Made by a program: the position numbers and the translations under genes. A stretch of DNA of 64,000 bases from NCBI GenBank assembly GCA_041690355.1, contig JAWLHK010000006.1, positions 62,001-126,000 on the forward strand. Direction: 5' to 3'. The notes below the pieces were generated by a model. The model was not told the origin of the DNA. It was given only the letters and a program-made list of their open reading frames with translations, and did not search any database. The DNA comes from a bacterium. GTDB taxonomy: Bacteria; J088; JAWLBW01. Position 1 is the stretch's first letter. Every line of letters starts with the position of its first letter. This document shows positions 1,365 through 60,506 of the stretch, piece after piece.

Positions 1365-1411
1365 AGTTACGAGTGACGATTCAATTTACAATTTACGATT
1401 GACGATTGACG
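1365..1411 (+). repeat. Heptamer tandem array (AGTGACG/ATTGACG types)
   Basis: agttacg agtgacg attca atttaca atttacg attgacg attgacg. Confidence 0.85.
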
Positions 1412-1452
1412 GTTCAGGCAAGCACCAAAAGAAAAACAGAAGGAGAGAAACG

Positions 1453-1500
1453 GACAAACGACAAACGAAGAACGAGAAACGAAGAACGAGAAACACGAAC
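1453..1500 (+). repeat. Heptamer tandem array (GAGAAAC/GAAGAAC type)
   Basis: gacaaac gacaaac gaagaac gagaaac gaagaac gagaaac acgaac. Confidence 0.8.
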
Positions 1501-1531
1501 CGTGCTCCTTTCCAACTCTTGCCGGGCGCGC

Positions 1532-1561
1532 AAAAAAAAGCGCCCCGGTCAGGGGCGCTTT
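1532..1561 (-). terminator. Intrinsic terminator of ndk (possibly bidirectional)
   Basis: A8-GCGCCCC-ggtca-GGGGCGC-TTT. Confidence 0.85.
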
Positions 1562-1585
1562 GTCGGAGCTGAGAGGGGATCGCCC

Positions 1586-2017
1586 TTACAGCTTCGAATT
1601 CACGAGTTCCATCTGGCCGAAGAACCAGCCGATTTCGAAGGCGGCCGTCTCGGGGGCGTCGGAGCCGTGCACGGTGTTGGCTTCGATGCTCTCGGCAAAG
1701 CGCTTGCGGATGGTCCCCTCGGCGGCCTTGGCCGGGTCGGTGGCGCCCATCAGTTCGCGGTTCTTCGCGATGGCGTTTTCGCCCTCGAGCACCATGACCA
1801 GGCTCGCGCCCGAGGTCATGAACTTGATGAGGTCGCCGAAGAACGGGCGCGCCTTGTGCACGGCGTAGAAACCGGCGGCCTGCTGCTCGCTCATGTGGAT
1901 CATTTTGGCGGCGGCCACGCGCAGGCCGTTCTTTTCAAAGATGGCGATGACTTCGCCGATGACGCCCTTGGCGACGCCGTCGGGCTTGATGATGGACAGG
2001 GTACGTTCTACGGGCAT
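1586..2017 (-). CDS. ndk: Nucleoside diphosphate kinase
   Basis: [12 protein letters not shown] and NTVHGSD (catalytic His) motifs. Confidence 0.97.
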
Positions 2018-2107
2018 GATCTTCTGCTTTCCGCTTGAGTGCATTTTATGCCGACCGGGCCATATTGGGAACCGGTCGACGGCAATGGTCGCTCGATTGC
2101 CGCCGAC

Positions 2108-2139
2108 AAATTGTCAGTCGTCAATCGTAAATCGTCAAT
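2108..2139 (-). repeat. Heptamer tandem array (ATTGACG type) just after the sucD stop
   Basis: Plus strand tgtcagt cgtcaat cgtaaat cgtcaat. Confidence 0.8.
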
Positions 2140-2142
2140 GGG

Positions 2143-3021: not shown

Positions 3022-3051
3022 GGTTCCAGATTCCTGAATTCGGGTGTCTGA

Positions 3052-4221
<1,170 letters not shown>

Positions 4222-4290: not shown

Positions 4291-5037
4291 TTATTTACCG
4301 AAAATGTCCTTGATCCCCTGAACGGTCGTCGCGCGCCCCATGGCGGCGATGCTCTCGGTCAGCGGAATTTCCTTCGGGCACGCCTTGACGCAGTTCTGCG
4401 CGTTACCGCAGTCGGCAACGCCCCCTTCGTCCATGATGGCGTGCAGGCGGTCGGCCTTGTTCAGGGCCCCCGTCGGGTGGTCGTTCATCAGGCGCACCTG
4501 GCTGAGCGCGAAGGCGCCGACGAAATTGTTGTCCGGCGAGTACTGCGGGCAGACCTCGAGGCAGCAGCCGCAGGTCATGCACGTCGACAGGGCATAGCGC
4601 TTCAGCGCGGCGTCTCCGCTCTGGCGCGGGCCGGGGCCCAGGTCGTGCGTGCCGTCGATGGGCACCCAGGCGTTGACCTTCTTGAGGTCGTTGAACATGC
4701 GCTGGCGGTCGACCTGCAGGTCGCGCACGGTGGGGAACTTCGTCATCGGTTCGAGGCGCAGCGGCTGTTCGAGCTTGTCGACCAGGGCCGAACAGGCCTG
4801 GCGCACCTTGCCGTTGATGACCATCGTGCAGCTGCCGCAGACTTCTTCGAGGCAATTCTGATCCCAGGTCACCGCCGGCACCCGCTGCCCGGCAGAGTTC
4901 TGCGGCTTGCGCTGAATCTCCATGAGCACGCTGATGACGTTCATGTTTTTCTTGTACGGAAGCGAAAAGTGCTCCCAGTAGGGCGCCGTATCGGGTTCGA
5001 GCTGGCGCTTGATGTGGACTTCAATCGTGTTGGCCAT
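4291..5037 (-). CDS. sdhB: Succinate dehydrogenase iron-sulfur subunit
   Basis: Cys clusters CLEEVCGSC, CMTCGCCLEVCP and CGNAQNCVKACP. Confidence 0.95.
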   Translation of the reverse strand: MANTIEVHIKRQLEPDTAPYWEHFSLPYKKNMNVISVLMEIQRKPQNSAGQRVPAVTWDQNCLEEVCGSCTMVINGKVRQACSALVDKLEQPLRLEPMTKFPTVRDLQVDRQRMFNDLKKVNAWVPIDGTHDLGPGPRQSGDAALKRYALSTCMTCGCCLEVCPQYSPDNNFVGAFALSQVRLMNDHPTGALNKADRLHAIMDEGGVADCGNAQNCVKACPKEIPLTESIAAMGRATTVQGIKDIFGK

Positions 5038-5061
5038 GATTCGACTCCTGCGACCTTGGGA

Positions 5062-6972
5062 TCACTTCTTCGGACCGCTGATACCGCTGTCAGGACTGCC
5101 CGTCGTGCCGGCGCCCGGGGTCGGCGCGGTGTGCGCGCCCTGGCCGGCCGATTCGCGGGCTACGCCCGCCGTGGTGCCCTGGCTCGTCGTCGCGCCGCCG
5201 CGGTAGTCGCGCTTGCGGGGCGTGATGAAGCGGATATCGACAGGCTCGTATTCGAGCTGCGGCTGCCCGTTCACGAACTTCGCCTTCGTGGTCTTCATCC
5301 AGGTGGCGTCGTCGCGGTCGGGGAACTCCGGCTTGTAGTGCGCGCCGCGGCTTTCGTTGCGGGCGAGGGCACCCAGGGTGATGACCCGGGCGAGCTGCAG
5401 CATGTGGTAAAGGTCGCGCGTGAACACGAGCTCCTGGTTGGCCCACGAGCCCTTGTCGTTCAGGCCGATGCGCTCCCAGCGGGCGAGCATCTCCTGCAGC
5501 TTGCGATCGGTCTCTTCGAGGTTCTTGTTGTAGCGGACGATGGTGACGTTGTCGGTCATCAGCTCGCCCAGCTCCTTGTGCAGCACGTAGGCGTTCTCGG
5601 GGCCGTCCATCCGCCGGATCTTGTCCGTGAAGGCCTGGCGTTCGTGCCGGCTGCGCTCGTAGACTTCTTCCTTGAGGTCGGCCGAAGACTTCTGCAGCCC
5701 CTTGATGTACTTCACGGCCGCCGGCCCCGCCACGAAGCCGCCGAAGATGCACGAGACGAGCGAGTTCGCGCCCAGGCGGTTCGCGCCGTGGTACTGATAT
5801 TCGCATTCGCCCGCGGCATACAGGCCGGGGATGTTCGTCGCCTGGTTCCTGCTCGACGACAGGTCGAGGTTGCCGTCTGCCTTGGTTTCGTAGCCGACCC
5901 ACAGGCCGCCCATCGAATAGTGGACGCCGGGGAAGATCTGCATGGGGACCTTGCGCGGATCGTCGCCGACGAACTTCTCGTAGATTTCGAGGATGCCGCC
6001 CAGCTTCTGGTTCAGCTTCTCGACGGGGATGTGCGTCAGGTCGAGGTAGACCTTGTTCTCGCCGTCGACGCCGAGCTTCTGATGGACGCAGACGTCGAAG
6101 ATCTCGCGCGTCGCGATGTCGCGGGGGACCAGGTTACCGTACTTGGGATACTTCTCTTCGAGAAAGTACCACGGCTTGCCGTCCTTGTACGTCCACACCC
6201 GGCCGCCTTCGCCACGGGCGCTTTCAGACATCAGGCGCAGCTTGTCTTCGCCCGGGATGGCCGTCGGATGCACCTGGATGAATTCGCCGTTCGCGTAGTA
6301 GACCCCCTGCTGGTAGAGGATCGAGGCCGCGTTGCCGGTGTTGAAGGTCGAGTTCGTGCTCTTGCCGTAGATGATGCCCGGGCCGCCCGTGGCCATGATG
6401 ACCGCGTCGGCGCGGAAGGTGCGCTCTTCCATCGTGCGCATGTTCTCGGCCACGATGCCGCGGCAGACGCCGTCGTCGTCGAGCACCACGCCCAGAAAGT
6501 TCCACCCTTCGTACTTCTCGACGTTCCCCTCGACTTCGTGCCGGCGCACCTGTTCGTCGAGCGCGTAGAGCAGCTGCTGGCCCGTCGTCGCGCCCGCGAA
6601 GGCCGTGCGGTGGTGCAGGGTGCCGCCGAAGCGGCGGAAGTCGAGCAGCCCTTCGGCTGTGCGGTTGAAGGGAACCCCCATGCGGTCGAGCAGGTAGATG
6701 ATGCCCGGCGCCGCTTCGCACATGGCCTTGATCGGGGGCTGGTTGCCCAGGAAGTCGCCGCCGTAGACGGTGTCATCGAAGTGGATGAGCGGCGAGTCGC
6801 CTTCACCCTTCGTGTTCACGGCGCCGTTGATGCCCCCCTGCGCGCACACGCTGTGGCTGCGCTTGACGGGAACGAGCGAGAACAGATCGACCGGATGTCC
6901 GGCCTCGGCCACCTTGATCGTCGCGGCAAGGCCTGCGAGACCGCCGCCGACTACGATAATCCGCTGTTTCAT
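5062..6972 (-). CDS. sdhA: Succinate dehydrogenase flavoprotein subunit
   Basis: GGGLAG, RSHSVCAQGG (FAD His), QVHPT and HGANRLGANSL motifs. Confidence 0.95.
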   Translation of the reverse strand: MKQRIIVVGGGLAGLAATIKVAEAGHPVDLFSLVPVKRSHSVCAQGGINGAVNTKGEGDSPLIHFDDTVYGGDFLGNQPPIKAMCEAAPGIIYLLDRMGVPFNRTAEGLLDFRRFGGTLHHRTAFAGATTGQQLLYALDEQVRRHEVEGNVEKYEGWNFLGVVLDDDGVCRGIVAENMRTMEERTFRADAVIMATGGPGIIYGKSTNSTFNTGNAASILYQQGVYYANGEFIQVHPTAIPGEDKLRLMSESARGEGGRVWTYKDGKPWYFLEEKYPKYGNLVPRDIATREIFDVCVHQKLGVDGENKVYLDLTHIPVEKLNQKLGGILEIYEKFVGDDPRKVPMQIFPGVHYSMGGLWVGYETKADGNLDLSSSRNQATNIPGLYAAGECEYQYHGANRLGANSLVSCIFGGFVAGPAAVKYIKGLQKSSADLKEEVYERSRHERQAFTDKIRRMDGPENAYVLHKELGELMTDNVTIVRYNKNLEETDRKLQEMLARWERIGLNDKGSWANQELVFTRDLYHMLQLARVITLGALARNESRGAHYKPEFPDRDDATWMKTTKAKFVNGQPQLEYEPVDIRFITPRKRDYRGGATTSQGTTAGVARESAGQGAHTAPTPGAGTTGSPDSGISGPKK

Positions 6973-6981
6973 CTGCAAACC

Positions 6982-7611
6982 TTACTTGAAAGCGAAGAGG
7001 ATGTTCACGCCGACGGCGAAGAGCACCAGGGCCACGCCGATGCTGACCTTGATCATCGCGCGCTGGGCCTGGGGCGAAACGACCAGCCCCCACTTGAACG
7101 CGAAGTTGAAGAGGCCGTTGCCGAGGTGATAGGCGACCGAACCGACGCCGAGGATGTAAATCACCTTGATCCAGCCCGCGCCGAAGTACTCGGCCATGTA
7201 GGCGTAATCGACCTTGGCGCCGCCGAGGCCCCACTGGTACAGATAATCCTGCAGGCGCGTCTCGGAGACGTGAAAGATGATGAAGAGAAAGAGGATGATG
7301 CCGGTCACCCGCTGCGCCGTGTAGGCGAAGTTCTGATAGAACGGGTAGGCGTCGATGTTCGGCTTCGATTCGGCCGTGATGAAGAAACCGTAGATCGAGT
7401 GGAACAGGAGCGGCGCGAAGACGATGCCGATTTCGGCCGCCCACAGATAGGGCATGTCGTGCAGGCGATCGACCGCCGCGTTGAACGACGCCGCGCCGCC
7501 GAGGGCGTGGGCGTTGGTCCAGTAGTGTTCGGCGATGAAGACCGCCAGCGGGATGATCCCCGAAAGGGAATGCAGGCGGCGCAGAAGATACGTAAACGTA
7601 CCGCGCGTCAT
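6982..7611 (-). CDS. sdhC: Succinate dehydrogenase cytochrome b558 membrane anchor (single-subunit type)
   Basis: RRLHSLSG, several TM segments with His ligands, YHLGNGL; first gene of sdhCAB. Confidence 0.9.
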   Translation of the reverse strand: MTRGTFTYLLRRLHSLSGIIPLAVFIAEHYWTNAHALGGAASFNAAVDRLHDMPYLWAAEIGIVFAPLLFHSIYGFFITAESKPNIDAYPFYQNFAYTAQRVTGIILFLFIIFHVSETRLQDYLYQWGLGGAKVDYAYMAEYFGAGWIKVIYILGVGSVAYHLGNGLFNFAFKWGLVVSPQAQRAMIKVSIGVALVLFAVGVNILFAFK

Positions 7612-7769
7612 AACGATGTTCTCCTCAGGACGGACACTGTGCGCCCCTGGGGCCGCGACGCACCGCGTCTCGGAGGGCGCAAACAGTTCAAGTAGGCGAG
7701 ATAACTCATGAAACGATTCAACACCGCGGCTGCGGATTGCCGCACAATCAGCTCAAGGTGTAACCAATT

Positions 7770-7797: not shown

Positions 7798-7814
7798 GCT
7801 GCGTCATTTTTAGG

Positions 7815-7846
7815 ATTGACGAGTGACAATTGACGATTGACGATTT
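7815..7846 (+). repeat. Heptamer tandem array (ATTGACG type)
   Basis: attgacg agtgaca attgacg attgacg attt. Confidence 0.85.
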
Positions 7847-8243: not shown

Positions 8244-8299
8244 AGCGCCAAGTGCCAAGGGCCAAGCAGCAAGCACCGAGCGCTAAGCGCCAAGCGCCG
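8244..8299 (-). repeat. Heptamer tandem array (AGCGCCA / TGGCGCT type), 8 units
   Basis: Plus strand agcgcca agtgcca agggcca agcagca agcaccg agcgcta agcgcca agcgccg. Confidence 0.85.
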
Positions 8300-8331: not shown

Positions 8332-8446
8332 CCCGTTCGTGTCGAGCCGACGGACAGGATGCAGGGCAGCCTGCGACGGCGAGACATGCTCATCCCTCGC
8401 TGTCGCGCTCCATTCCATTTCGCGCCGTCAGCTCGGGACGAACGGG
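8332..8446. repeat. Nested palindromic element (REP/MITE-like)
   Basis: 22-bp arms 8332-8353 and 8425-8446 match as inverted repeats at 19/22 positions; inner hairpin 8373-8406. Confidence 0.6.
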
Positions 8447-8478: not shown

Positions 8479-8509
8479 ACTCGTCACTCGTCACTCGTCA
8501 CTCGTCACT
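8479..8509 (-). repeat. Heptamer tandem array (AGTGACG type) just after the enoyl-CoA hydratase stop
   Basis: Plus strand (ACTCGTC)x4, perfect. Confidence 0.9.
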
Positions 8510-8514
8510 TCACT

Positions 8515-9297
8515 TCACTTGCCCTTCCACACCGGCTCGCGCTTTTCGAAGAACGCGCTGATCCCTTCGTGGGCGTCTTCGGTGGCCAGCGTGGCCGCCA
8601 GCTGGTCCTTCAGAAAGTCGAGCGCGTCGGCGTAGGCGAGGTCCTGCTGATGGTAAAAGGCATTGCGGCCCATGCGCACCGCCGTCGGGCTCTTCCGGGC
8701 CAGTGTCGCCGCGACCTCCTGCGCTTTGGCCATGACCTGATCGTGGGGCACCACCCAGTTCACGACGTTCCACCGCTCGGCCGTGGCCGCGTCGATCTTG
8801 TCGCCGAGCAGCAGCAGTTGCATGCCGCGCTTGCGGTCGATGTTGCGGAAAATGACGGCCATGATCATGTGCGGCCAGAGGCCGACGTTGATCTCGGGCG
8901 TGCCGAACGTCGCCTTTTCGCTGGCGACGAGCAGATCGCAGGCGAGCGCAACGCCGAACCCGCCGGCCAGACAGTGGCCGTTGATGGCGCCGACAATCGG
9001 CTTGCCGAGGTTCGCCATGATCGTGAACAGATCGACGAAGTGCGAGTGGCGATCGGATTTGTCCTCGCCCGACTTGAGGAAGCCGCCCAGGTCGCCGCCG
9101 GCGCTGAAGGCCTTGTCGCCGCTGCCGGTCAGGATTACGACGCGCACGTTCGCATCGTCGCCGGCCCGGCGAAACGCGTTCTGCAGCTCGGTCAGCGTCT
9201 CGGGGTTGAGGGCATTGCGCGCTTCGGGCCGGTTGATGGCGATGGTCGCGACATGGCCGTCGACCGTGTAGAGTACGTTCTGTTCCATGGCGGGCAT
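8515..9297 (-). CDS. Enoyl-CoA hydratase/isomerase family protein (methylglutaconyl-CoA hydratase-like)
   Basis: INRPEARNAL, FSAGGDL, GHCLAGG and TPEINVG motifs; start 9297 or 9288. Confidence 0.9.
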   Translation of the reverse strand: MPAMEQNVLYTVDGHVATIAINRPEARNALNPETLTELQNAFRRAGDDANVRVVILTGSGDKAFSAGGDLGGFLKSGEDKSDRHSHFVDLFTIMANLGKPIVGAINGHCLAGGFGVALACDLLVASEKATFGTPEINVGLWPHMIMAVIFRNIDRKRGMQLLLLGDKIDAATAERWNVVNWVVPHDQVMAKAQEVAATLARKSPTAVRMGRNAFYHQQDLAYADALDFLKDQLAATLATEDAHEGISAFFEKREPVWKGK

Positions 9298-12956: not shown

Positions 12957-14303
12957 ATGTCCCGCACGCTTGAACTCCTTGAACTCGAGCGCCGGCACGT
13001 GTGGCCCCCCTACACGCAGGCGCGCGCCTATTTCGAACATGCCCACCCCGTCATCGAGCGGGGCGAAGGGGTTTTTCTTTTCGACACCGAGGGCCGGCGG
13101 TACTACGACGCGTTTTCATCGTGGTGGGTCAACCTGCACGGGCACAGCCACCCGGCGCTGAACGCGGCGCTGGCCGAACAGGCGGCGCGCGTCGCGCACA
13201 CGGCCATGGCGGGCCAGACGAACGACCAGGCGGTGCTGCTCGCCGCCGAGCTTGCGGCCATGGCGCCGCAGGGCCTGACGCGCGTCTTCTTTTCGGATAA
13301 CGGCAGCACGGCGGTCGAAGTGGCCATGAAGATGGCCTTTCAGTACTTCCGCAACCGCGGCGAGACACGGCGGGTCAAATTCGCCGCCTTGACGGGCGCT
13401 TATCACGGCGACACCCTCGGCACGGTAGCCCTGGGCGGCATCGACATCTTTCACGCCATTTATCGGCCCATCACCATACCCGTCGTGCGCGCGCCCGCCC
13501 CCGCCTGCGGCGCCTGTCCCTACGGGCGCACGCGCTCGTCCTGCCAGGGCGAGTGCGCCGCCGACATCGAAGCGGCGCTGCTCCCGCATGCCGACGAACT
13601 CTGTGCCGTCGTGGTCGAGCCGCTCGTGCAGGGGGCCGTCGGCATGGGCATCTACAGTCCCGAAGTGCTGCGCCGCCTGCGTGCCTTCTGCGACCGGCAC
13701 GGCATCCTGCTCATCGACGACGAGGTCGCCATGGGGTTCGGCCGCACCGGTCGGGTCTGGGCGTGCGAGCACGCGGGTATCGTTCCCGACATCATCTGCG
13801 CCGCGAAGGGGCTGACCGGCGGCTATCTGCCCATGGCGGTCACGCTCGTCGCCGACTGGCTGTATGAAGGGTTCTTTGGGGAACCCGGAGATTCGCGCGC
13901 CTTCTACCACGGCCATTCGTTTACGGGGAACCCGTTGGCGGCGGCGGTCGCCCGGGTGAGCCTGCGCCTGTTGCGCGAAGAGCGCCTCCCTGAAATGGAG
14001 GAGAAGCTTGCCGCCTTCGGCGCCGTCATGCGTTTTTTTGCCGCCCGGCCCTGGTGCGGCGACGCGCGCTGGCTCGGCATGGTCGGCGCCTTCGATCTGC
14101 GCGCCCCCGACGGCACGCCGTTCCCCGCAGACTACGGCATGGGCCGCCGGGTGAATATCATGGCGCGCGAAGAAGGGGTCTATCTGCGCCCGCTCGGCGA
14201 CACGGTATACCTGATGCCCCCCTTGTCGATCACCGCGGCCGAGCTGGGCGACATGGGCGCGCGAATCGAACGGGCCATCGACAGGGCGCTGGCAACGGTA
14301 TGA
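12957..14303 (+). CDS. bioA: Adenosylmethionine-8-amino-7-oxononanoate aminotransferase
   Basis: HVWPPYTQ, SSWWVNLHGH, DNGSTAVEVAMKMA, DEVAMGFGRTG and AKGLTGG (PLP Lys) motifs. Confidence 0.93.
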   Translation: MSRTLELLELERRHVWPPYTQARAYFEHAHPVIERGEGVFLFDTEGRRYYDAFSSWWVNLHGHSHPALNAALAEQAARVAHTAMAGQTNDQAVLLAAELAAMAPQGLTRVFFSDNGSTAVEVAMKMAFQYFRNRGETRRVKFAALTGAYHGDTLGTVALGGIDIFHAIYRPITIPVVRAPAPACGACPYGRTRSSCQGECAADIEAALLPHADELCAVVVEPLVQGAVGMGIYSPEVLRRLRAFCDRHGILLIDDEVAMGFGRTGRVWACEHAGIVPDIICAAKGLTGGYLPMAVTLVADWLYEGFFGEPGDSRAFYHGHSFTGNPLAAAVARVSLRLLREERLPEMEEKLAAFGAVMRFFAARPWCGDARWLGMVGAFDLRAPDGTPFPADYGMGRRVNIMAREEGVYLRPLGDTVYLMPPLSITAAELGDMGARIERAIDRALATV

Positions 14304-14743
14304 GCGACGCCACGGGCAAGGTGAACGTTCCGCGGGCAGAACGGGTGTTCGCCCCGGTGCGGGCCGTGCTCGATCCGCGCGTGCTCCAGAGCGCCGTCTG
14401 GGGGGGGCGCTCGTCGACCCTCGTCATCGACGCGTGGCTCGAGGGGCGCGTGCATCTCTGCGTCACCGAGCAGATCATGGCCGAGTATTTTGCTGCCTTG
14501 CGACGCATGCTGCAGGTTCCGCTCGGGAGTTCCGTGGCCGACCATCTGCGTACCGGCGAGTCGGTGCGCGCCTTCATCGTGCCCCGCGCCTCGGGGGTGC
14601 CCGAAGACCGGCTGATCGCCTGCGCTCAAGCCGCGACGGCCGAGTCGGTGGTCACGCACGACGAGACGCTGCTCGACCTGGGCCAGGTGGGGTCCGTGCG
14701 TATGGAGACCCCGGGCGAGTTCGTGCGACGCCATCTCTCCTGA
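14300..14743 (+). CDS. PIN-domain protein (PIN_3-like, divergent)
   Basis: AVLDPRVL...AEY...EDRLIACA...VVTHDETLL...TPGEF pattern; ATGA overlap with bioA. Confidence 0.7.
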   Translation: MSDATGKVNVPRAERVFAPVRAVLDPRVLQSAVWGGRSSTLVIDAWLEGRVHLCVTEQIMAEYFAALRRMLQVPLGSSVADHLRTGESVRAFIVPRASGVPEDRLIACAQAATAESVVTHDETLLDLGQVGSVRMETPGEFVRRHLS

Positions 14744-14746
14744 GGT

Positions 14747-15976
14747 ATGCTGGTCGTCTTGCGTATGCCGCTTCGCCTCGCGATCGTTCTCCTGACACTT
14801 CTGCACTACGCCTGCGGGACGCTGCTCGCCGTCGAGAAGCGGACGCCCGTGGATCGCGTGTTCGAGCGGCAGGGGGGCATCGAGCGTCGTGACGGCCGCC
14901 TGTACGAGCTCAGTTCGACCGCGACCTTTGTTCCGGATGGGACGGTGGCCGTCGAGGGAAACGTCCTTCGCACGGATCTCTGCCGGCAATACGCCCGGGT
15001 GGGCTACCGGGTCGAGACCGAAACGCAGAAGATCCCGGCGGCGAGCGGGGTCGCCGTCGATGCGGGCCTGCTCGGGGCGGGGCTGCTGGCGGCGGTCTTC
15101 GCCGACGGGGCCGGCGCCAAGACCGCAATCGTCCTGGGCGCCGCCGTACCCCTGGCCGTCGACGGCTGGCGCTATTTCAGCCGGCCGGTGACGGCGAGCC
15201 CGGCGCTCACCCGGATCGAGCCCGAAGTTCCGGGCGCCGCCGGCTCGTATCCTTGCGGGCAGACCGATGCCGGCGGCGTGCGGCTCGAGTTCGCCGGCGA
15301 GACGACCCGGGTCTCGGGCGGGCGCTTTGCCGTTCGCATTCCTGAATCACGCGTGAGCAGCTCGGGCGGCCCGATCCTTACGGCCCATGCGCGCATACTT
15401 GCGGCAGAAGGCCCCTTCGAGCTGGGCCCGCAATCCCTGGCGCTCGGCGTCACGCTGGCGACCTATCGGGCTTTGCGCAGCGAAGCCGAGACCACGCGTT
15501 CGCTGACGGCTTCGGCGCGCTTCGTCATGGCCTATCCCGAATCGGCCAGCGCGGCGGTCATGCGCCAGATTCTCGTTCGGGAGCTCGCGCATGCCCCGAC
15601 CGAAGAGGAGCTGCGGGCGGTGCTCGATCTGCCGCAGTTGCCGCCGGAGCTGCGCAAGCCCGCGGCGGCCCGTTACATGGACCTGCGGGTCGATCGGCTG
15701 CGCCGGTCGATACCGGAGGTCCTTCTGGGCATTCACCGCGACGATCGCGATGCCAACACGTTCCTGCTGAACGGGTTTGCCGAAGAGGGCCTGGCGGCCA
15801 CGCAGCGCCGCAAGGACGGCCTCGCGGCCCTCTGTGCAGCCGTGTCGGAGCTCGACCTGCGGGAGGAAGACCGGCGTGACCGGAACCGCCGGGAGTGGCA
15901 CGCCGAGCTTGTCTCGCAAGTGGGAGAAGTCGATGCCGCGACGGCCATGCGCTACCTGGGCCAGTGCGGGAAATGA
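14747..15976 (+). CDS. Hypothetical exported/membrane protein
   Basis: N-terminal hydrophobic signal with Cys and internal hydrophobic segments; abuts the PIN gene. Confidence 0.6.
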   Translation: MLVVLRMPLRLAIVLLTLLHYACGTLLAVEKRTPVDRVFERQGGIERRDGRLYELSSTATFVPDGTVAVEGNVLRTDLCRQYARVGYRVETETQKIPAASGVAVDAGLLGAGLLAAVFADGAGAKTAIVLGAAVPLAVDGWRYFSRPVTASPALTRIEPEVPGAAGSYPCGQTDAGGVRLEFAGETTRVSGGRFAVRIPESRVSSSGGPILTAHARILAAEGPFELGPQSLALGVTLATYRALRSEAETTRSLTASARFVMAYPESASAAVMRQILVRELAHAPTEEELRAVLDLPQLPPELRKPAAARYMDLRVDRLRRSIPEVLLGIHRDDRDANTFLLNGFAEEGLAATQRRKDGLAALCAAVSELDLREEDRRDRNRREWHAELVSQVGEVDAATAMRYLGQCGK

Positions 15977-16029
15977 CGATTGACGATTGACGATTTACCC
16001 GAGTGACGAGTTACGAGTGACGAGTGAAC
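15972..16029 (+). repeat. Compound heptamer array (ATTGACG x4 then AGTGACG x4) overlapping a stop codon
   Basis: aatgacg attgacg attgacg atttacc cg agtgacg agttacg agtgacg agtgaac. Confidence 0.9.
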
Positions 16030-16059
16030 GGCAAGAACAGAACGTGGTCCTTGCTTCGT

Positions 16060-16087
16060 TGGCGCTTGATGCTCGGCGCTCGGCGCT
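16060..16087 (+). repeat. Heptamer array (TGGCGCT type)
   Basis: tggcgct tgatgct cggcgct cggcgct. Confidence 0.7.
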
Positions 16088-44630: not shown

Positions 44631-44730
44631 GGTCGCTGGGCGCTTGGACTTGGAGGCCCTTGCCGGTAATTCGTCAATCGTAGATTGTCAATCGTCAATT
44701 CTCGTCACTCGTCGCTCGACACTCGTCACT
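44631..44730. repeat. Compound heptamer arrays between convergent genes
   Basis: ggtcgct gggcgct; cgtcaat cgtagat tgtcaat cgtcaat; ctcgtca ctcgtcg ctcgaca ctcgtca. Confidence 0.85.
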
Positions 44731-51979: not shown

Positions 51980-52579
51980 TTACTTGACGCCGAGGATCTG
52001 AACGACGGCCGCACGCCCGGCGTGGTACTTGCCCTCGTGGACGTCGCGATCCAGTTCCCGGGCGATCTCCAGCTGCATTCCTTCCAGTTCTCCGCGAAGG
52101 ACGTCGAGGGTCATGAGCAAATCCGTCACAGGGGGCCCTCCCGTCTTGAATTCGAGCTGGCGCGGCGTGTAGGCCTCGAGAATAAGCACCCCGCCCGGAC
52201 GCAAACCCGCCACGGCGTCGCGGTGGACCCTGGCTCGCAGCGGCGGCGGCAGGTGTCCGAAGATGGAAACGATGCCGTCCCACATGCCGGCGTCAATCGG
52301 ATACTCGGCCAGGTCGGCCGCGATGGTCGTAATCTTGACTCCACGCTCCTGAGCCAGTTTCTGTGCCCGCTCCATACCCACCTTCGAGGCGTCGACGGCC
52401 GTGACCTCGAATCCCTGTTCCGCAAGATAGACGGCATTGCGGCCCTGGCCTTCGGCAAGGCACAGGACCGTGCCGCCCGCAGGAATGCGGGACGCGACTT
52501 CCCGCAGAAAGTCGTTCGGCGCATCGCCGTAAGCGAGTTCGGGTTCGGCGTAGCGTTCGTCCCAGAAGGAATTTGTCAT
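51980..52579 (-). CDS. Class I SAM-dependent methyltransferase (TehB-like)
   Basis: FWDERY and LCLAEGQGRNAVYLA. Confidence 0.9.
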   Translation of the reverse strand: MTNSFWDERYAEPELAYGDAPNDFLREVASRIPAGGTVLCLAEGQGRNAVYLAEQGFEVTAVDASKVGMERAQKLAQERGVKITTIAADLAEYPIDAGMWDGIVSIFGHLPPPLRARVHRDAVAGLRPGGVLILEAYTPRQLEFKTGGPPVTDLLMTLDVLRGELEGMQLEIARELDRDVHEGKYHAGRAAVVQILGVK

Positions 52580-52616: not shown

Positions 52617-52766
52617 CTCGTCACTCGGGCAAAGCGCTAAGCGCCAAGCACTGAGCGCCAACAGCAAGTACCTTCTGCATAAGAGTACTTTCCGGTAAAT
52701 CGTAAATCGTCAATCGTAAATCGTCAATTTTCCAGATTCGTCACTCGTCACTCGTCACTCGTAACT
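52617..52766 (-). repeat. Compound heptamer cassette (AGTGACG x4, ATTGACG/ATTTACG x5, TGGCGCT x4-5)
   Basis: Plus strand agcgcta agcgcca agcactg agcgcca; ggtaaat cgtaaat cgtcaat cgtaaat cgtcaat; tcgtcac x3 tcgtaac. Confidence 0.9.
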
Positions 52767-57273: not shown

Positions 57274-57311
57274 CTTTTCCCGTTCCTGCCCTTACTTGGT
57301 TCTTGCCGTAT

Positions 57312-57339
57312 CGGGCATTGGGAATCGGGCATCGGTCAT
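57312..57339 (-). repeat. Heptamer array (ATGCCCG type) overlapping the thioesterase stop
   Basis: Plus strand cgggcat tgggaat cgggcat cggtcat. Confidence 0.65.
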
Positions 57340-57767
57340 TGCGGATTCTGCGCCGGGCGCAAAATCCGCTCCATGCAGGCCCGCAGCGGCGGCGGGATGG
57401 GCGTCGGCTTCTGCGTATCCCGATCCACGAAGACGTGCACGAAGTGCCCCTCGGCCGCCGGCTCGCCGTGCCCCTGGCGGAACAGGCCGATCTCGTAGCG
57501 CACCGACGAGTTCCCCAGCTTGCCCACGCGCAGCCCGGCGTCCACGATTTCGGGGAAGGCGAGTGACTGGTGGAACTTGCAGAAGGTTTCCACCGCAAGG
57601 CCGATGACGGTTCCCCCATGGATGTCGAGCCCCCCCTCGCGGATCAGGTACTCGTTCACGACGGTATCGAAGTACGAGTAGTAGGTCACGTTGTTGACGT
57701 GGCCGTAGATGTCGTTGTCCATCCAGCGCGTCGGGATGGCGAGAAAGTGCGGATAGTCGGAACGCAT
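57336..57767 (-). CDS. Acyl-CoA thioesterase (4HBT/YbgC family)
   Basis: [16 protein letters not shown]. Confidence 0.9.
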
Positions 57768-57792
57768 GGGAAATTCCGGATGAAAAGGGCGT

Positions 57793-58917
57793 TCAGGGGA
57801 CGAGAATCTGGCGCACGGCGTTCCCCTCGGCCAGGCGGTCGAAGGCTGCATTCAGGCCGTCGAAGCCGATGTGATCGCTCATGAGCCGGTTCACCGGCAG
57901 GCGTCCCTGCTGATAGAGCGCGATGTAGCGGGGAATGTCGCGTACGGGGACGCACGAGCCGATATAGCTCCCCTTCACGGTGCGCTCTTCGGCGACGAGA
58001 TTCACGTGCTGCACCGGCCACATCTGCTGGGGATGCGAAAGGCCCGCCGTGACGGTCATGCCGCCGCGACGGGTTGCCTTGTAGGCGAGGTCCATGGCGG
58101 GCACGACGCCGGCCATCTCGAACGCGTAGTCCACGCCGCCGCGGGTCAGGTCGCGGATCTGCTGGAGCGCATCCGAGTCGCCCGCGTTGATGGCGTTCGT
58201 GGCCCCCAGTTCGGCGGCCAGGCGCAACTTGTCGGCGTTCAGGTCGACGGCGATGATGCGCGAAGCGCCGGCGGCGATGGCGCCGAGCACGGCGTTCAGG
58301 CCCACGCCGCCGAGTCCGATGACGGCAACAGTCGACCCCATGGCGACCCGGGCGGTGTTCGCCACGGCGCCGACGCCGGTGAGCACGGCGCAGCCGAAGA
58401 GGGCGGCTTCGTCGAAGGGGAGGGAGGAATCCACTTTCACGACCGAACGCCGCGAGACGACCGCGTACTCCGCGAAGGCCGAGACGCCGAGGTGGTGGTG
58501 CACATCGGCGCCATTCCGCTGGATCCGTCGGGCGCCCGAAAGCAGCGTTCCCGCCGTGTTCGCGACCGCGCCCGGCTCGCACAGGGCGGGGCGCCCTTCC
58601 ATGCAGGGGATGCACCCGCCGCAGCTCGGCACGAAGACCAGCACAACGTGATCGCCGATGGCCAGATCGGTCACGCCGGGTCCCAGTTCCACCACTTCGC
58701 CGGCCGCTTCGTGGCCGAGGGCCATCGGGGTCGGGCGCGGACGGTCGCCGTTGATGACCGAAAGGTCCGAATGGCAGAGCCCCGCGGCGCGTACGCGGAC
58801 GATCAGTTCGCCATGGCCGGGCGCGCTCAGGTCGACTTCGTCGATGGCCAGCGGTCTGCTTTGTGCGTAAGGCGCCGGAGCGCCGATGGACTCGAGGACG
58901 GCAGCACGCGTTTTCAT
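57793..58917 (-). CDS. Zinc-dependent alcohol dehydrogenase
   Basis: GLCHSD, GHEAAG, structural-Zn Cys cluster, GLGGVG. Confidence 0.92.
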
Positions 58918-59058
58918 GGCGTACAGTTTAGCGCGGATCGCTTCGGAACCCCAAGCGGGTTGGCCGACGGACGCCGGTCGTCGAACGTCGGTGGAGGGTC
59001 CAGCGGTGCTCCCTGGGCATCATGGTTCGCCCGATGGGATAGCCGGACATCGCGGCGA

Positions 59059-59166
59059 TTACCGTGCCTTTACTCGGTTCCCTGCGCAGGCGATTATGGA
59101 CTCACTGAGGTGGCCAGCCGCGAGAGCGATATCGTAGAGGTACTTCTTGACCTCACGCGGCTTCAT
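59059..59166 (-). pseudogene. Truncated HEPN/DUF86 (HepT-like) toxin remnant
   Basis: Translates MKPREVKKYLYDIALAAGHLSE..., overlapping the MNT stop; ends after 35 aa with no RxxxxH motif. Confidence 0.7.
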
Positions 59167-59473
59167 AAAGGGCGGTCCGGGTTTCCTCGACAGCTTCTTT
59201 GAAGTACGGATTTTGTATCGGTTCAGCCTCGACCAGATCGATCTCCCTTTGGAACAGCTCCTGCAAAGCTTTCAAGAGGCCGAAGTAGGCGCCAGCGTAG
59301 TCGCGTGAGGCCGCCGGGAGGAACTCCACGAGAAAATCGAGGTCGCTTGTCTTCGGATCGAAGTTCCCGTTGACCGCCGAGCCGAACAGCCAGAGGCGCC
59401 GAACATGATGCTTGCGACACAGGTCGGCGATCAGTTCCCGGCTGTTTTCAACGCTGGAGTGAATGGAGCCCAT
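59153..59473 (-). CDS. Minimal nucleotidyltransferase (MntA-type antitoxin)
   Basis: LWLFGSA...SDLDFLVEF and REIDLV...NPYF. Confidence 0.85.
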   Translation of the reverse strand: MGSIHSSVENSRELIADLCRKHHVRRLWLFGSAVNGNFDPKTSDLDFLVEFLPAASRDYAGAYFGLLKALQELFQREIDLVEAEPIQNPYFKEAVEETRTALYEAA

Positions 59474-59600
59474 GGCTAAGATCATACCCGGATTCGGCTG
59501 TCTCATGCTATTGGACCGTCGAGCAGGCGAGGGCTTCGCCGGGTGGACGAATCGGAAGGGGCGGGGTAGGCTGATCTCTCCCCCGGATCCGGAGGTTCTC

Positions 59601-60368
59601 ATGGCGATTCGCCTGTCGGTTCTCGCGCTCACCGCGCTGTCGTTTCTGTTTCCCGCGCTCGCGGCGGCCGCGCCTGCCGCTTCTCCCGCGGGTTCCTATG
59701 CGTCGTTCGAGACCGACGCCACCTCGGGCGTCCCGACGCGCATCCGGGCGGCGATCGACGGATACGCGAAACTCGACGCGGGGAATCCCGAAGTTGCCTG
59801 GCGGCTCATCCGCGCGTACTTCGCTTATTACGACGAGCTGGCCGAGCGGAATCAGGAAAAGGAGCGCGTCTGGGCGGCCGATGCCGGTTACGAGCTCGCA
59901 AACCAGGCGATCAAGGAGCATCCGGAACATCCGGAAGTCGTTTACTATGCGGGGCTCATCGGGATGGCCTATCTGGACATGCACCAGATGAAGGCGCTGT
60001 TCATCGTGGGTGAGGTCATGGACCGGTTCCGCAAGGCGCGCGCGCTCAAGCCGGCGCTCGACGACTGGGGTCCCGACCGGAGTCTGGGGATACTCTATCA
60101 CTCGCTGCCGGGGTGGCCGCTCAGCCAGGGCGACAGGAAGAAGGCGCACGAACATCTCCAGCGCGCGGCCGACAACGCGCCCGAGCGAGGCATCAACCGG
60201 CTCATGCTGGCGCAAGTGCTGCTGGCGCTCGACGAACCCGCGGCCGCGAAGCCGCATCTCGAGTTCCTGCAGAAGGGGAACTGGCGGGCGAGCTCGCCGC
60301 ACTGGCGCGCGATCACGGAGCGGCGGATCGGGGAGACGGTGAAGCAGTGGGAGGCGGCGGACCGGTGA
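59601..60368 (+). CDS. Exported TPR-like helical protein
   Basis: Signal peptide, SD GGAGG, helical repeats (RSLGILY...PGWPLSQGD). Confidence 0.65.
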   Translation: MAIRLSVLALTALSFLFPALAAAAPAASPAGSYASFETDATSGVPTRIRAAIDGYAKLDAGNPEVAWRLIRAYFAYYDELAERNQEKERVWAADAGYELANQAIKEHPEHPEVVYYAGLIGMAYLDMHQMKALFIVGEVMDRFRKARALKPALDDWGPDRSLGILYHSLPGWPLSQGDRKKAHEHLQRAADNAPERGINRLMLAQVLLALDEPAAAKPHLEFLQKGNWRASSPHWRAITERRIGETVKQWEAADR

Positions 60369-60395
60369 GGGTCGCTTCCCGTAATGCTTTGGAGG

Positions 60396-60506
60396 GGGGG
60401 AGTGGGAGAGTGGGGGACTGGGGGGAGAAGCAAGAACCGCGAAGAACGGGCATGTGCTTCTATCGGCTCTTCACCGGCGTCCGACGTCCGGCGTCCGACG
60501 TCCGAC
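60396..60506. repeat. Octamer (GGGAGAGT-like) and heptamer (CCGACGT) arrays between convergent genes
   Basis: gggggagt gggagagt gggggact at 60396-60419; ccggcgt ccgacgt ccggcgt ccgacgt ccgac at 60474-60506. Confidence 0.7.

Follow-up and report, generated by a model that had tools for sequence, protein, structure and literature searches.

Heptamer repeats dispersed between genes have been described in several bacteria. Thus, the GGGAATC and GGGGA(C/T)T repeats of Xanthomonas campestris, X. axonopodis and Nostoc PCC 7120 form intergenic period-7 arrays with a strong four-unit preference, 70-75 cases of convergent pairs and an outward polarity, for which the available part of the study reports no link to mobile elements or gene function (Rehm et al. 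2015, PLoS One, PMC4692102). The same source cites the heptanucleotides of Calothrix PCC 7601, which belong to the STRR of heterocystous cyanobacteria. The TAACTGA direct repeats of marine Beggiatoaceae, cyanobacteria and Bacteroidetes are intergenic, present in 2-6 copies at about 170 loci beside genes of all functional classes, and were interpreted as a translational signal, the unit lying a few nucleotides upstream of start codons (MacGregor 2015, PMC4679880). Heptamers also occur in the intervening sequence (IVS) present in the 23S rRNA of Coxiella burnetii, an element considered selfish that carries an S23p ORF and a 28-bp terminal stem, with tandem GACAGAT heptamers of strain-variable number ahead of the ORF (Warrier et al. 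2016, PMC4990558). PF05635 proteins are similar in sequence and structure to Avd, the accessory protein of diversity-generating retroelements (PMC10053308).

The window, i.e., the whole stretch of 64,000 nt that was analysed, comes from a genome whose arrays share with the Xanthomonas and Nostoc repeats their dispersed intergenic period-7 organisation, polarity, convergent pairs and four-unit preference. The outward polarity itself is thus already published (Rehm et al. 2015). Unlike those repeats, which the available text presents as one unit family, at least 11 vocabularies are found in this genome, most of them without G-tracts, so that a G-quadruplex reading of the four-unit preference is inapplicable. 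Furthermore, the modules carry a distal box, GCAAGGAC, and the arms are tied to S23p genes, which are unmentioned in the accessible part of PMC4692102. With the Coxiella IVS, as described in the sections available, they share a PF05635-type ORF between terminal inverted repeats, and the 28-bp IVS stem corresponds to four heptads, as do the arms. However, the IVS resides in rRNA helix 45 whereas these elements lie between protein-coding genes, most copies have no ORF and many composites have unlike arms that cannot form an RNase III stem. As with the cyanobacterial heptanucleotides cited in PMC4692102, the non-coding DNA of a single genome contains several different tandem heptanucleotides at scattered sites, but the host belongs to another phylum and has 65% G+C. 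The arrays and the TAACTGA repeats are both intergenic heptamer direct repeats, although many units, both kinds of gene end and an outward polarity are found here, unlike in the TAACTGA description available. Unlike Avd systems, the S23p genes have no adjacent cognate reverse transcriptase, template repeat or variable repeat, and the single reverse transcriptase of the genome is of another type. The pneumococcal BOX and the REP/BIME are small modular non-coding elements, some of them tandem, located in spacers near gene ends; their modules are tens of bases long without 7-nt substructure, and REPs are tied to RAYT genes. By analogy, the arrays could be likened to them in size, modularity and location, whereas their heptads would set them apart. 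Unlike REP-RAYT systems, no such link was found when tested, the flanks of the Y1 gene being devoid of heptamer arrays.

Both Tandem Repeats Finder (TRF, minimum score 30) and direct reading detect short period-7 arrays in the window. Most positions given by the sequence-only reading are recovered by TRF; the C run at 44631 and the array at 57310-57344 are visible by eye without being listed by TRF. The gap noticed between 16.1 and 44.6 kb does hold no array of these families according to TRF. Families are designated A (ATTGACG/ATTTACG), B (AGTGACG), C (TGGCGCT/AGCGCCA) and E (CGGACGT). The features are as follows.

1369-1411, 2109-2139, 7814-7845, 15972-15999, 44671-44699, 52695-52728: family A arrays (TRF, direct reading)
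1365-1378, 8479-8520, 16002-16027, 44701-44730, 52738-52766: family B arrays (TRF, direct reading)
8244-8298, 16059-16087, 52632-52661: family C arrays (TRF, direct reading)
1426-1494 (period 7/14, A-rich) and 60474-60506 (CGGACGT family): singleton arrays (TRF, direct reading)
1365..1424, plus strand: B and A module, rightward, then box CAGGCAAGCAC (TRF, reading); about 200 nt upstream of, and antisense to, an aldolase gene (106-1164, minus strand)
1426..1494, plus strand: A-rich array GAGAAACGAAGAAC, period 7/14 (TRF, reading), with the A module on one side and the ndk terminator hairpin (about 1525-1560) on the other
2109..2139, minus strand: A module 3 nt past the sucD stop (2143-2145), directed away from sucD
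7814..7845, plus strand: A module, rightward (TRF, reading, Pfam), the sdhC start being 202 nt and the biotin-carrier gene stop 107 nt away; this module breaks the nearest-boundary orientation rule
8244..8298, plus strand: C module (AGCGCCA on the plus strand; TRF, reading), directed away from the biotin-carrier gene and upstream of its start by 78 nt
8333..8445, no strand: a palindromic element of about 113-125 nt, one copy of a second dispersed type, between C and B modules
8479..8520, minus strand: B module holding the enoyl-CoA hydratase stop (8515-8517), directed away from that gene
15972..16027, plus strand: A then B modules, both rightward (TRF, reading); the TGA stop of gene 14747-15976 falls within the first unit
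16030..16054, no strand: central box hairpin GGCAAGAAC-N7-GGTCCTTGC, amid converging modules
16059..16087, minus strand: C module (AGCGCCR on the minus strand; TRF, reading), directed away from gene 16151-16837 and 63 nt upstream of where it starts
44631..44650, plus strand: degenerate C-like run TGGGCGCTTGGACTTGG directly past the stop of gene 44104-44628 (by eye, absent from the TRF list); its orientation reverses the usual C rule
44671..44730, minus strand: B then A modules, then box CCGGCAAGGGC (TRF, reading, Pfam), at and overlapping the 3' end of a fatty-acid hydroxylase gene (minus strand) and directed away from it
52632..52661, plus strand: C module (TRF, reading), 52 nt upstream of the start of a methyltransferase gene (51980-52579, minus strand), directed away
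52664..52694, no strand: central box hairpin GCAAGTAC...GTACTTTCC
52695..52766, minus strand: B then A modules directed away from an epimerase-family gene (TRF, reading, Pfam), whose last codons and stop (52748-52750) are encoded by the B units
57300..57344, minus strand: CTTGCC box, then degenerate ATCGGGC-type array (below the TRF threshold), the array overlapping a minus-strand thioesterase gene (57336-57767) at its 3' end
60391..60437, plus strand: G-rich array GGAGTGGG, period 8, rightward, then box GAAGCAAGAAC
60474..60506, minus strand: E module (CGGACGT on the minus strand; TRF, reading), starting 1 nt inside the stop (60471-60473) and therefore covering the last codons of gene 60471-61382 (minus strand); directed away from the gene body, toward the box at 60427-60437

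The arrays extend far beyond the window. In the whole 4.64-Mb genome, TRF reports 792 period-7 rows in 574 kb of intergenic DNA, vs 18, 16 and 15 in three dinucleotide shuffles of this DNA, and 141 in 4.04 Mb of coding DNA. Arrays account for 4.0% of intergenic bases and are present in 457 of the 2247 spacers of at least 30 nt, the remaining 80% having none. The recurring vocabulary is small (ATTGACG, AGTGACG, CCTGATT, AGCGCCA, CGGACGT), the most frequent types in TRF rows being AATCGTC (135), ACGAGTG (111), AATCAGG (88) and AAGCGCC (69). The excess over shuffled sequence and the sharing of unit types across the genome, both anticipated from the window, are thus borne out, the same few units being found at hundreds of unrelated loci.

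Array orientation follows the nearest gene boundary, not the strand of the gene. Genome-wide, with boundaries set by a crude in-house gene caller (checked with Pfam in the window only, where 31 of 39 called genes have a family), outward arrays outnumber inward ones by 194:10 within 30 nt of 3' ends and by 182:13 within 100 nt of 5' ends. Orientation tracks the spacer half in 11 of the 12 families tested (Fisher p 7e-11 to 5e-3; p 0.09 with n=11 for the AAGCGCT family), the polarity sign of each family being learned from the same data and calibrated independently by the S23p arms only. All four spacer classes (convergent, divergent and tandem) carry arrays, and the pattern is identical across ++, --, +- and -+ spacers. 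Where a spacer holds several arrays they converge ('><' in 60 spacers, '<>' in 1). In the 137 single-array spacers, the median gap is 13 nt behind the array and 122 nt ahead, the shorter one being behind in 115. The median distance from arm to stop codon is 4 nt, the arm often providing the stop codon itself, and that to the start codon is 46 nt. Orientation being set by the nearest boundary, the sense transcript bears one unit strand downstream of genes and its complement upstream.

The sequence-only reading, which placed the arrays mostly just after stop codons and in transcript sense, does not hold. Arrays are as common beside 5' ends, in every spacer class, and there is no overall strand bias, (ATTGACG)x3 matching 58 times forward and 59 times reverse. 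The supposed A+B+C cassette in transcript sense is better described as A/B modules directed away from one gene and a C module directed away from the other, which meet at a short CAAGGAC/GTCCTTG hairpin. Two ORFs on which that reading relied, 358-1338(+) and 4441-7695(+), are shadow ORFs with Pfam families on the opposite strand, the former lacking any Pfam family; consequently, each of the arrays at 1365 and 7815 is upstream of a minus-strand gene and antisense to it.

The module plan, about 4 heptads followed by the distal box, is common to all families. Although unit numbers range from 2 to 15, arrays of 4-5 units make up the bulk of A (99 of 128), D (66 of 86) and E (29 of 35). The box, (C/A)GGCAAG(G/A)AC, lies about 5 nt past the array in 273 arrays, and CAAG boxes are distal rather than proximal (A, 58 vs 10; D, 58 vs 3). 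The order of unit variants also recurs ('oovo' in 21 of 56 D arrays; 'oovo' or 'ovoo' in 44 of 119 A arrays). In the most frequent composite, where A/B faces C across about 40 nt (72 pairs), the arms are unlike and cannot form a long IVS stem. The cassettes C5:69058 and C5:71706 share one identical stretch, which runs from the left arm's outer edge to slightly beyond the S23p start codon, while their flanks are unrelated. No target-site duplication or empty site could be defined, and a duplication of the host gene 3' end beyond the element was seen in only 2 of 476 array-bearing cases. Spread by module copying rather than by independent slippage is supported by the shared plan, the box, the recurring variant orders and the bracketing of S23p genes by the same arms, as had been proposed from the window; the 3'-UTR RNA- or protein-binding signal proposed with it is not.

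The genes recurrently flanked by arrays, the search for which had been suggested, are S23p genes. PF05635 has 11 matches in this genome (10 above cut-off), 6 in the related genome G001 and none in G002-G004. Of the 11, 8 lie between inverted arrays of these families, the inverted arms (14-34 nt, E <= 1e-3) being found likewise at 2 of 5 G001 loci, or at 4 of 5 by eye; the link is therefore present in two genera. The arm families concerned (A, D, E, F and AGCGCCC) are all found gene-less too; none of the S23p cassettes detected in the genome carries B or C arms, although these are the commonest in window composites. Around the S23p matches (up to 260 nt), arrays whose polarity is known are directed toward the match in 10 cases and away from it in 0, the reverse of the polarity at ordinary genes. 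Among unrelated genomes, period-7 inverted flanks occur at 5 of 20 S23p loci (9 genomes), and arms at 0 of 5 loci examined in G008, which has 9 matches. S23p alone does not predict arrays in unrelated genomes (Mann-Whitney p = 0.19): arrays per 100 kb are 0, 7.7, 13.3, 15, 0, 0 and 2.5 in seven genomes with PF05635 and 1.7, 1.7, 1.7, 3.3, 0, 0 and 0 in seven without. No published link between polar heptamer arrays and S23p was found in the literature.

Considered together, the heptamer arrays probably represent terminal arms, which belong to small selfish cassettes of one family. Speaking against this are the lack of S23p cassettes with B or C arms, the unlike arms and the folds of composites, the want of a defined target-site duplication or empty site, and the failure of S23p alone to predict arrays in unrelated genomes. 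One arm consists of about four heptads (28-31 nt) with the short conserved box on its inner side, and a full-length cassette has a roughly 120-aa four-helix-bundle gene between two arms directed at it. This gene belongs to S23p (PF05635, TIGR02436), the family of the 23S rRNA IVS ORF, which resembles Avd. The closest solved relative of the cassette protein, PDB 2rld, is an entry with five chains. The genome contains about ten full cassettes, each with its own arm vocabulary, and, in this reading, hundreds of gene-less derivatives, either single arms or arm pairs joined at the CAAGGAC/GTCCTTG hairpin. Since S23p genes are bracketed by inverted arrays of the same families, the window arrays appear as gene-less derivatives of IVS-like cassettes, and the window therefore holds such derivatives only. 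Modules may be copied as units to new sites, local slippage merely trimming or lengthening the copies, and S23p proteins could work in trans on the arms that share their vocabulary, perhaps at one heptad for each subunit of a pentamer. Every arm would be directed away from the neighbouring host gene, on either strand, because its outer end is flush with the host DNA at the gene edge.

The arrays could be selected rather than selfish, if a nucleoid- or ribbon-helix-helix-type factor bound them in a 7-bp register to mark or insulate gene boundaries, as heptad operators are bound by the omega repressor of plasmid pSM19035. The conservation of the period and of about 4 units across families and genera of unrelated sequence is consistent with this, as are the symmetric placement at both kinds of gene end, the four-unit preference in Xanthomonas (PMC4692102) and the sharing of arrays by orthologous spacers above chance (3/11 vs 0/94). 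It nevertheless seems unlikely, since at least 11 vocabularies would require as many specific binders, 80% of spacers have no array, as is also true of 8 of 11 orthologous spacers in the sister genus, units are replaced entirely from one genus to the other and S23p is the only candidate binder identified. Ordinary slippage in place, with a polymerase favouring period 7 (an idea of Mrazek 2007 cited in Rehm et al. 2015) and repeats kept where harmless, would account for the variable unit numbers, also seen among Coxiella strains (PMC4990558), for vocabularies differing between genera and for the heptamer over-representation known from many bacteria (PMC4692102). It is quite improbable: it explains neither a few identical units at hundreds of unrelated loci nor the common box, the preferred 4-5 units and the recurring variant orders, and it can orient units neither outward from the nearest gene (194:10, 182:13) nor toward S23p genes (10:0).

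The RNA-level signal of the sequence-only reading, a 3'-UTR element or terminator in the sense transcript, fits the 147 outward arrays that overlap a stop codon or begin no more than 10 nt from it, the enrichment of family D in convergent spacers (35/85), the transcription of most Xanthomonas repeats (PMC4692102) and the resemblance of the hairpin plus T-rich sequence to a terminator in some copies. However, sense and antisense are about equal in tandem spacers (A 36:34, D 17:18, C 17:19) and B even leans antisense (17:40), divergent spacers, which have no 3' end, hold arrays (A 28, B 22), and sense RNA bears the complementary strand beside 5' ends, where arrays are equally common, all of which makes this signal improbable. 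Converging arrays would also be expected as scars of double-strand-break repair, if a templated polymerase or reverse transcriptase extended both 3' ends before joining; the genome has Ku and one reverse transcriptase, and S23p resembles Avd, a reverse-transcriptase partner (PMC10053308). Such scars are highly improbable, since this sole reverse transcriptase is of the UG14 defence type, next to a nuclease-like gene and without arrays noticed in its vicinity, arrays are flush with gene ends rather than placed around a central joint, inner boxes are identical instead of complementary, single arms are common (137 spacers) and full cassettes with an ORF between arms do not fit. REPs are also found in spacers beside stop codons and as inverted pairs, and a single-copy Y1 transposase gene is present at G000:C3:284649-284990. 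That the arrays are REP/REPIN-like elements mobilised by a RAYT (Y1) transposase is very doubtful, as the hairpins that flank this gene are GC-rich and of a different kind, without heptamer arrays or CAAG boxes, and Y1 genes also occur in G002-G004, nearly devoid of period-7 arrays.

Period-7 density per Mb reaches 214 in this genome (G000) and 100 in G001, vs 5, 10 and 0 in G002, G003 and G004. The comparison of genomes with and without S23p inside the phylum amounts to a single evolutionary contrast. The vocabulary of G001 differs from that of G000, and (ATTGACG)x3 is present in 0 of 40 other genomes. In 105 syntenic spacers of these two genomes, arrays occur in both at 3, in G000 only at 8 and in G001 only at 0. 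When four window composites were folded on both strands, the z-scores ranged from -1.7 to +1.5.

Seven nucleotides is the commonest tandem period of the genome under study (an assembly of 4.64 Mb in 42 contigs, about 65% G+C), with 992 of the 4393 rows found genome-wide by TRF. Most period-7 rows derive from a small vocabulary, in which the canonical units AATCGTC (135 rows), ACGAGTG (111), AATCAGG (88) and AAGCGCC (69) are accompanied by others such as AAATCGT (46), ACGTCCG (39) and ACGACTG (38). The 574 kb of intergenic DNA hold 792 period-7 rows, against 18, 16 and 15 in three dinucleotide-preserving shuffles, and the 4.04 Mb of coding DNA hold 141. The sequence-only reading had made its repeat family depend on being more frequent than in shuffled intergenic DNA and on unit types common to the whole genome. 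Both expectations are borne out, by the 792 rows against 15-18 and by the recurrence of the top seven units at unlinked loci (46-135 rows apiece); the arrays thus exist and exceed chance expectation by far. Head-to-tail repetition with period 7 and recurrence of the units at unlinked, mainly non-coding loci, which characterize dispersed heptanucleotide arrays, are both seen. The array midpoint is intergenic in 831 of 978 cases. Arrays account for 4.0% of intergenic bases, and 457 of the 2247 spacers (the DNA between neighbouring genes) of at least 30 nt have one or more.

Within the window (contig C6, 62001-126000), nearly all the array positions proposed earlier coincide with period-7 TRF arrays, and the three unit types, here families A (ATTGACG/ATTTACG), B (AGTGACG) and C (TGGCGCT/AGCGCCA), were seen again on reading the sequence. 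Rfam 15 gave no match at gathering score in the 64-kb window. To our knowledge, heptamer arrays, reported since 1990 as over-represented in many bacteria, are still without explanation.

Genes were called with our own codon-usage caller (3734 genes, covering 87% of the genome), which was checked in the window with Pfam, a family being assigned to 31 of the 39 called genes submitted. The loci that bear on the placement of the arrays are the following.

358-1338, plus strand: open reading frame of the sequence-only reading; no Pfam family, a DeoC-family aldolase being encoded on the opposite strand
1365-1411: array
4441-7695, plus strand: long open reading frame of the sequence-only reading; sdh and suc genes lie there on the minus strand
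7814-7845: array
8515, 15976 and 52748: places where an array supplies the last codons and stop of a gene
44631: C-like run, visible by eye and absent from the TRF list
57310-57344: array, likewise visible by eye and absent from the TRF list

Since the minus strand is the coding one at both of the open reading frames listed, each of the two arrays beside them (1365-1411 and 7814-7845) precedes a minus-strand gene, in antisense, and does not follow a stop as had been proposed. More generally, arrays occur in all four spacer classes, including divergent spacers, which lack any 3' end (28 arrays of family A, 22 of B). In about 70 genes of the genome, the stop and the codons before it are provided by an array, so that the spread of arrays reshapes gene ends. 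Their neighbours in the window are housekeeping genes (sucD, ndk, sdh, enoyl-CoA hydratase). Simple-sequence repeats of phase variation, which sit in open reading frames or promoters of contingency genes and switch expression through unit number, are a poor match, as the neighbours are housekeeping genes and the arrays lie outside open reading frames or at their extreme end. Among housekeeping genes of the window, a PIN-domain gene and a small nucleotidyltransferase-domain gene (14300-14743 and 59153-59485) look like parts of toxin-antitoxin systems. Furthermore, a perfect-looking 13-nt direct repeat, CTAGAATACAATT in 2.3 copies at 43452-43481, directly precedes a TetR-family gene (43484-44107), of which it is possibly the operator.

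The arrays had also been described as lying in transcript sense. This does not hold in tandem spacers, where the ratio of sense to antisense is 36:34 for A, 17:18 for family D and 17:19 for C, and where B shows an antisense bias (17 sense, 40 antisense). Orientation is predicted by the spacer half: in 11 of 12 families, the left half holds one unit strand and the right half the other (Fisher p from 7e-11 for A up to 5e-3; p = 0.09 for the twelfth family, AAGCGCT, n = 11), and the pattern is identical in ++, --, +- and -+ spacers. Read 5' to 3', the units ATTGACG, ATTTACG, AGTGACG, CCTGATT, CGGACGT and CAGTCGT, and more weakly AGCGCCA, point outward, away from the nearest gene boundary. Outward arrays outnumber inward ones by 194 to 10 within 30 nt of gene 3' ends, a result independent of start-codon choice, and by 182 to 13 within 100 nt of gene 5' ends, gene starts being uncertain. 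For both counts, the polarity sign of each family was learned from the data themselves. At more than 60 nt from a 3' end, the ratio flips to 19:50. In two-array spacers, 60 pairs converge and one diverges; for adjacent pairs, the figures are 125 and 17. The 137 single-array spacers follow the rule as well: the median gap is 13 nt behind the array (4 nt where a 3' end adjoins, 46 nt where a 5' end does), 122 nt ahead of it, and the gap behind is the smaller in 115.

Several rules that might underlie this polarity were tried and rejected. A promoter reading, with TTGACG as a -35 element, was rejected because orientation is symmetric about the spacers. Stop-codon logic is not general either: the outward units of A, B and D have a TGA in each frame, none exists in ATTTACG or CGGACGT, and the TGA of family F is on the inward strand. 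The G/C or purine skew of the outward strand is inconsistent between families.

The arrays are parts of modules, or arms, of about four heptads with a distal box. Arrays of four to five units prevail in A (99 of 128), B (61 of 102), D (66 of 86), E (CGGACGT; 29 of 35) and C (51 of 68), four being the mode in all five families measured. A box (C/A)GGCAAG(G/A)AC, hereafter the CAAG box, is common to 273 arrays, about 5 nt past the distal end; distal boxes outnumber proximal ones by 58 to 10 in A, 58 to 3 in D and 20 to 1 in E. In converging modules, the boxes make a short hairpin, for example GGCAAGAAC-N7-GGTCCTTGC at 16030-16054 of the window. Among composites, A and/or B opposite C at a distance of about 40 nt is the most frequent (72 convergent pairs), like-arm pairs being rarer (10 A-A, 6 D-D). 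The order of unit variants recurs as well, with 'oovo' in 21 of 56 D arrays and 'oovo' or 'ovoo' in 44 of 119 A arrays. Pure slippage was considered as a rival. The four-to-five-unit length, the common box, the recurring composites and the variant order point to whole-module copying, with slippage as noise.

As RNA, the window composites with unlike arms are not unusually structured (eight folds, z from -1.7 to +1.5). RNAfold pairs B with C on one strand, which would suit a quasi-complementarity of the two through G-U pairs; this reading was dropped, as the z is no lower than -0.85 and most B arrays of tandem spacers are antisense. The units ATTGACG, AGTGACG, CCTGATT, CGGACGT and AGCGCCA have no GGG tract and do not qualify as G-quadruplex sequences; such tracts are found only in a minor G-rich family, at 60391-60424 of the window and in the arms of a cassette on contig C23. 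Outside the window, at 39560-39980 of contig C10, a unit of about 148 nt is locally triplicated in tandem; it takes in the 3' end of a gene, a D module plus CAAG box and another GC-rich hairpin element, GGGTCCCCCTGACGGGGGACGACAGGGGGG, which is also present elsewhere.

Arms of this kind also enclose genes of S23p, an Avd-like four-helix-bundle protein (PF05635). The genome has 11 PF05635 matches (10 above cut-off), G001, the only other genome of the same family, has 6, and G002-G004, from the same phylum, have none. Of the 11 matches, 8 lie between inverted repeats of 14-34 nt (E <= 1e-3), as do 2 of 5 loci in G001; converging arrays are visible by eye at 4 of these 5. The arms are 22-34 nt long at seven of the eight flanked loci and 14 nt long at the eighth (contig C7, 58156). 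They belong to families A (contig C20, 48600-49174), D, E (three loci) and F, or consist of AGCGCCC, AATGGTC or G-rich units, and CAAG boxes lie on their inner sides. The make-up of a 23S rRNA intervening sequence (IVS) cassette, that is a PF05635/TIGR02436 open reading frame between inverted repeats with heptamer arms of about 28 bp, is thus present in this genome, all copies studied being located between protein-coding genes. None of the PF05635 genes is in the window, whose copies are gene-less. The cassette protein matches TIGR02436 'four helix bundle protein' and PDB 2rld, a five-chain entry. Where polarity is known, every array at most 260 nt from an S23p match is directed towards it (10 of 10). 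Ordinary genes show the opposite, and for five families the polarity sign is thereby calibrated independently. On contig C5, two cassettes with unrelated flanks have the same sequence between the left arm's outer edge and a point just beyond the start codon of S23p; the right arm is missing from one of them.

Another S23p cassette, with CAATGGT arms (contig C26, 16200-16920, outside the window), directly follows a DksA/TraR-type zinc-finger gene. Past it lies a second copy of the last ~52 nt of that gene, stop included, 98% identical, which could be a long target duplication or result from an integration restoring the gene end. Duplication of the host-gene 3' end beyond the element was rejected as a general feature: genome-wide, it was seen in 2 of 476 cases with arrays and in 3 of 1238 without. 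In two long array-free spacers outside the window, near 7193 of contig C1 (595 nt) and 7452 of contig C9 (1535 nt), a second copy of the final 65-69 nt of the preceding gene follows 487 and 818 nt further on (95% and 87% identity), which would suit an insertion at the gene end.

Taken with the shared arms, the polarity makes it fairly probable that the window arrays were copied, without the gene, from arms of IVS-like S23p cassettes. The outer end of an arm would abut host DNA at a gene edge and the arm would point to the cassette interior, so that arms would point away from host genes. Against this, B and C, the commonest families in the window composites, have no S23p cassette in this genome, the arms of the A/B-C composite differ from each other, neither a target duplication nor an empty site was defined, and the association across phyla is weak. 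In a comparison with MITEs (miniature inverted-repeat transposable elements, marked by terminal inverted repeats, a target-site duplication and kinship with an autonomous element), like-arm pairs exist and are outnumbered by unlike ones, no such duplication was defined, and the link to S23p cassettes lies in the common arms only. It is doubtful, but conceivable, that S23p acts on its own arms, with the 7-nt register and the four-to-five-unit length reflecting binding by an oligomer. Under a broader proposal, to which we give a low probability, the heptamer repeats of bacteria at large would serve Avd-like S23p pentamers as a reading frame. One 7-nt unit would be gripped by each subunit, an arm of 4-5 heptads being the footprint of one ring, and each S23p paralogue would recognise its own arm vocabulary and copy or protect arms in trans. 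Hundreds of gene-less modules could thereby be seeded flush against gene ends. If true, this would provide a protein for the 35-year-old STRR/heptamer puzzle and a function outside retroelements for the widespread PF05635 family. The presence of S23p genes within the same arms suggests a concrete protein partner for heptamer arrays that can be tested.

Other explanations were considered besides the copying of cassette arms. A sense-RNA signal of the 3' UTR would suit the short gap at 3' ends; the balanced strands in tandem spacers and the arrays of divergent spacers stand against it. Protein-binding boundary elements would agree with the placement at both gene ends; the different units of G001 weigh against them. 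The arrays might also be repair scars left by a templated polymerase, and Ku is present in the genome; cassettes with an S23p gene between two arms speak against this. Unit addition by a reverse transcriptase, in a telomerase-like manner, was rejected, the sole reverse transcriptase of the genome being of the UG14 defence type. Its gene (contig C18, 59929-63423; PADLOC E 9e-197) has a 283-aa gene without known family upstream and a PLD/nuclease-like gene downstream, and the locus is probably a defence locus. REP/RAYT elements, which also lie in spacers and form inverted pairs, were rejected too: the Y1 gene (contig C3, 284649-284990) is flanked by other GC-rich hairpins and not by arrays or CAAG boxes. 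This IS200/RAYT-like transposase (150 aa, single-copy) is followed by several such hairpins, including GGCCGGCCCTTCAGGCCGG and CCCGGCCCTGCAGGCCGGG (region 284500-285000), which could represent a REP family belonging to this transposase and separate from the heptamer modules.

Comparable arrays have been described elsewhere. In Rehm et al. 2015 (PMC4692102), GGGAATC arrays of Xanthomonas and GGGGA(C/T)T arrays of Nostoc are reported with 70-75 convergent pairs and a four-unit preference, which is tied to G-quadruplex formation, the function being left to be elucidated. Their polarity, with units on the coding strand after stops and on the non-coding strand upstream of open reading frames, is also found here (194:10 and 182:13), and so are the four-unit preference (mode of four in five families) and the convergent pairs (125 against 17 divergent). 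In contrast, the main unit families lack G-tracts able to form a G-quadruplex. As Xanthomonas-type polarity and four-unit length occur here with many non-G-rich units, the G-quadruplex explanation is not sufficient. Other reports describe TAACTGA repeats upstream of start codons in Beggiatoaceae (MacGregor 2015, PMC4679880), a Coxiella IVS with a 28-bp terminal stem and tandem GACAGAT heptamers, in strain-variable number, before the S23p open reading frame (PMC4990558), and a resemblance of PF05635 to Avd of diversity-generating retroelements (PMC10053308). A term search for heptamers in an STR survey (PMC12699852) gave nothing, and a literature search of limited extent returned no paper linking heptamer arrays and S23p cassettes genome-wide. 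Arrays, polarity and four-unit length are thus already published for other bacteria, as are heptamers beside S23p for Coxiella. What is new is the vocabulary of many families without G-tracts, the common CAAG box, the unlike-arm composite, the opposite polarity at S23p and host genes and the occurrence in a sparsely sampled phylum.

With up to one mismatch, (ATTGACG)x3 occurs 117 times in this genome and never in 40 others. G001 has 40 period-7 rows in 400 kb, with the units TTGAGGA, TGCGATC, TTCCGCG and CGGACGA. Period-7 rows per Mb amount to 214 in the genome under study, 100 in G001, 5 in G002 (200 kb), 10 in G003 (100 kb) and 0 in G004 (25 kb), a comparison that represents one evolutionary contrast and not five. 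Of 105 adjacent gene pairs in synteny, 3 have arrays in the two genomes alike, 8 in the studied genome alone, none in G001 alone and 94 in neither; at one shared spacer, G001 has inverted GATCGCA arms in place of an A-B ... C composite. A homology search with sucD, a protein too conserved for the purpose, yielded Bacillus, Myxococcus and the like, with no near relative among the best 80 loci.

PF05635 is present in 15 of 36 unrelated genomes. In 40-60 kb from each of seven genomes with it and seven without (period 7, score >= 36), arrays per 100 kb were 0, 7.7, 13.3, 15, 0, 0 and 2.5 with PF05635 and 1.7, 1.7, 1.7, 3.3, 0, 0 and 0 without, a difference that is not significant in this sample of 14 genomes, which is too small (Mann-Whitney p = 0.19). 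High densities are confined to S23p-bearing genomes among the 14, and S23p alone is not sufficient. Among 20 S23p loci of nine further genomes, 6 have inverted flanks, 5 of them with period 7 (G014, G015, G026 and, twice, G039); such flanks are absent from G008 (0 of 5) and G021 (0 of 3), which are both poor in arrays.

A second dispersed element, of about 125 nt and without match in Rfam, has 51 paired copies in the genome, one of them at 8333-8445 of the window. Its terminal stem (about 20 bp, CCGTTCGTGTCGAGCCGACGG ... CCGTCAGCTCGGGACGAACGG) is conserved, and a second stem, of 9 bp, lies further in. All copies but one are intergenic (50 of 51), 40 have a heptamer array no more than 60 nt away, 20 of these being flanked by arrays left and right, and the element often occupies the place expected for the S23p gene. 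Because of two G-U pairs, both conserved, one strand is favoured as RNA (alifold, -44.6 against -41.4 kcal/mol).
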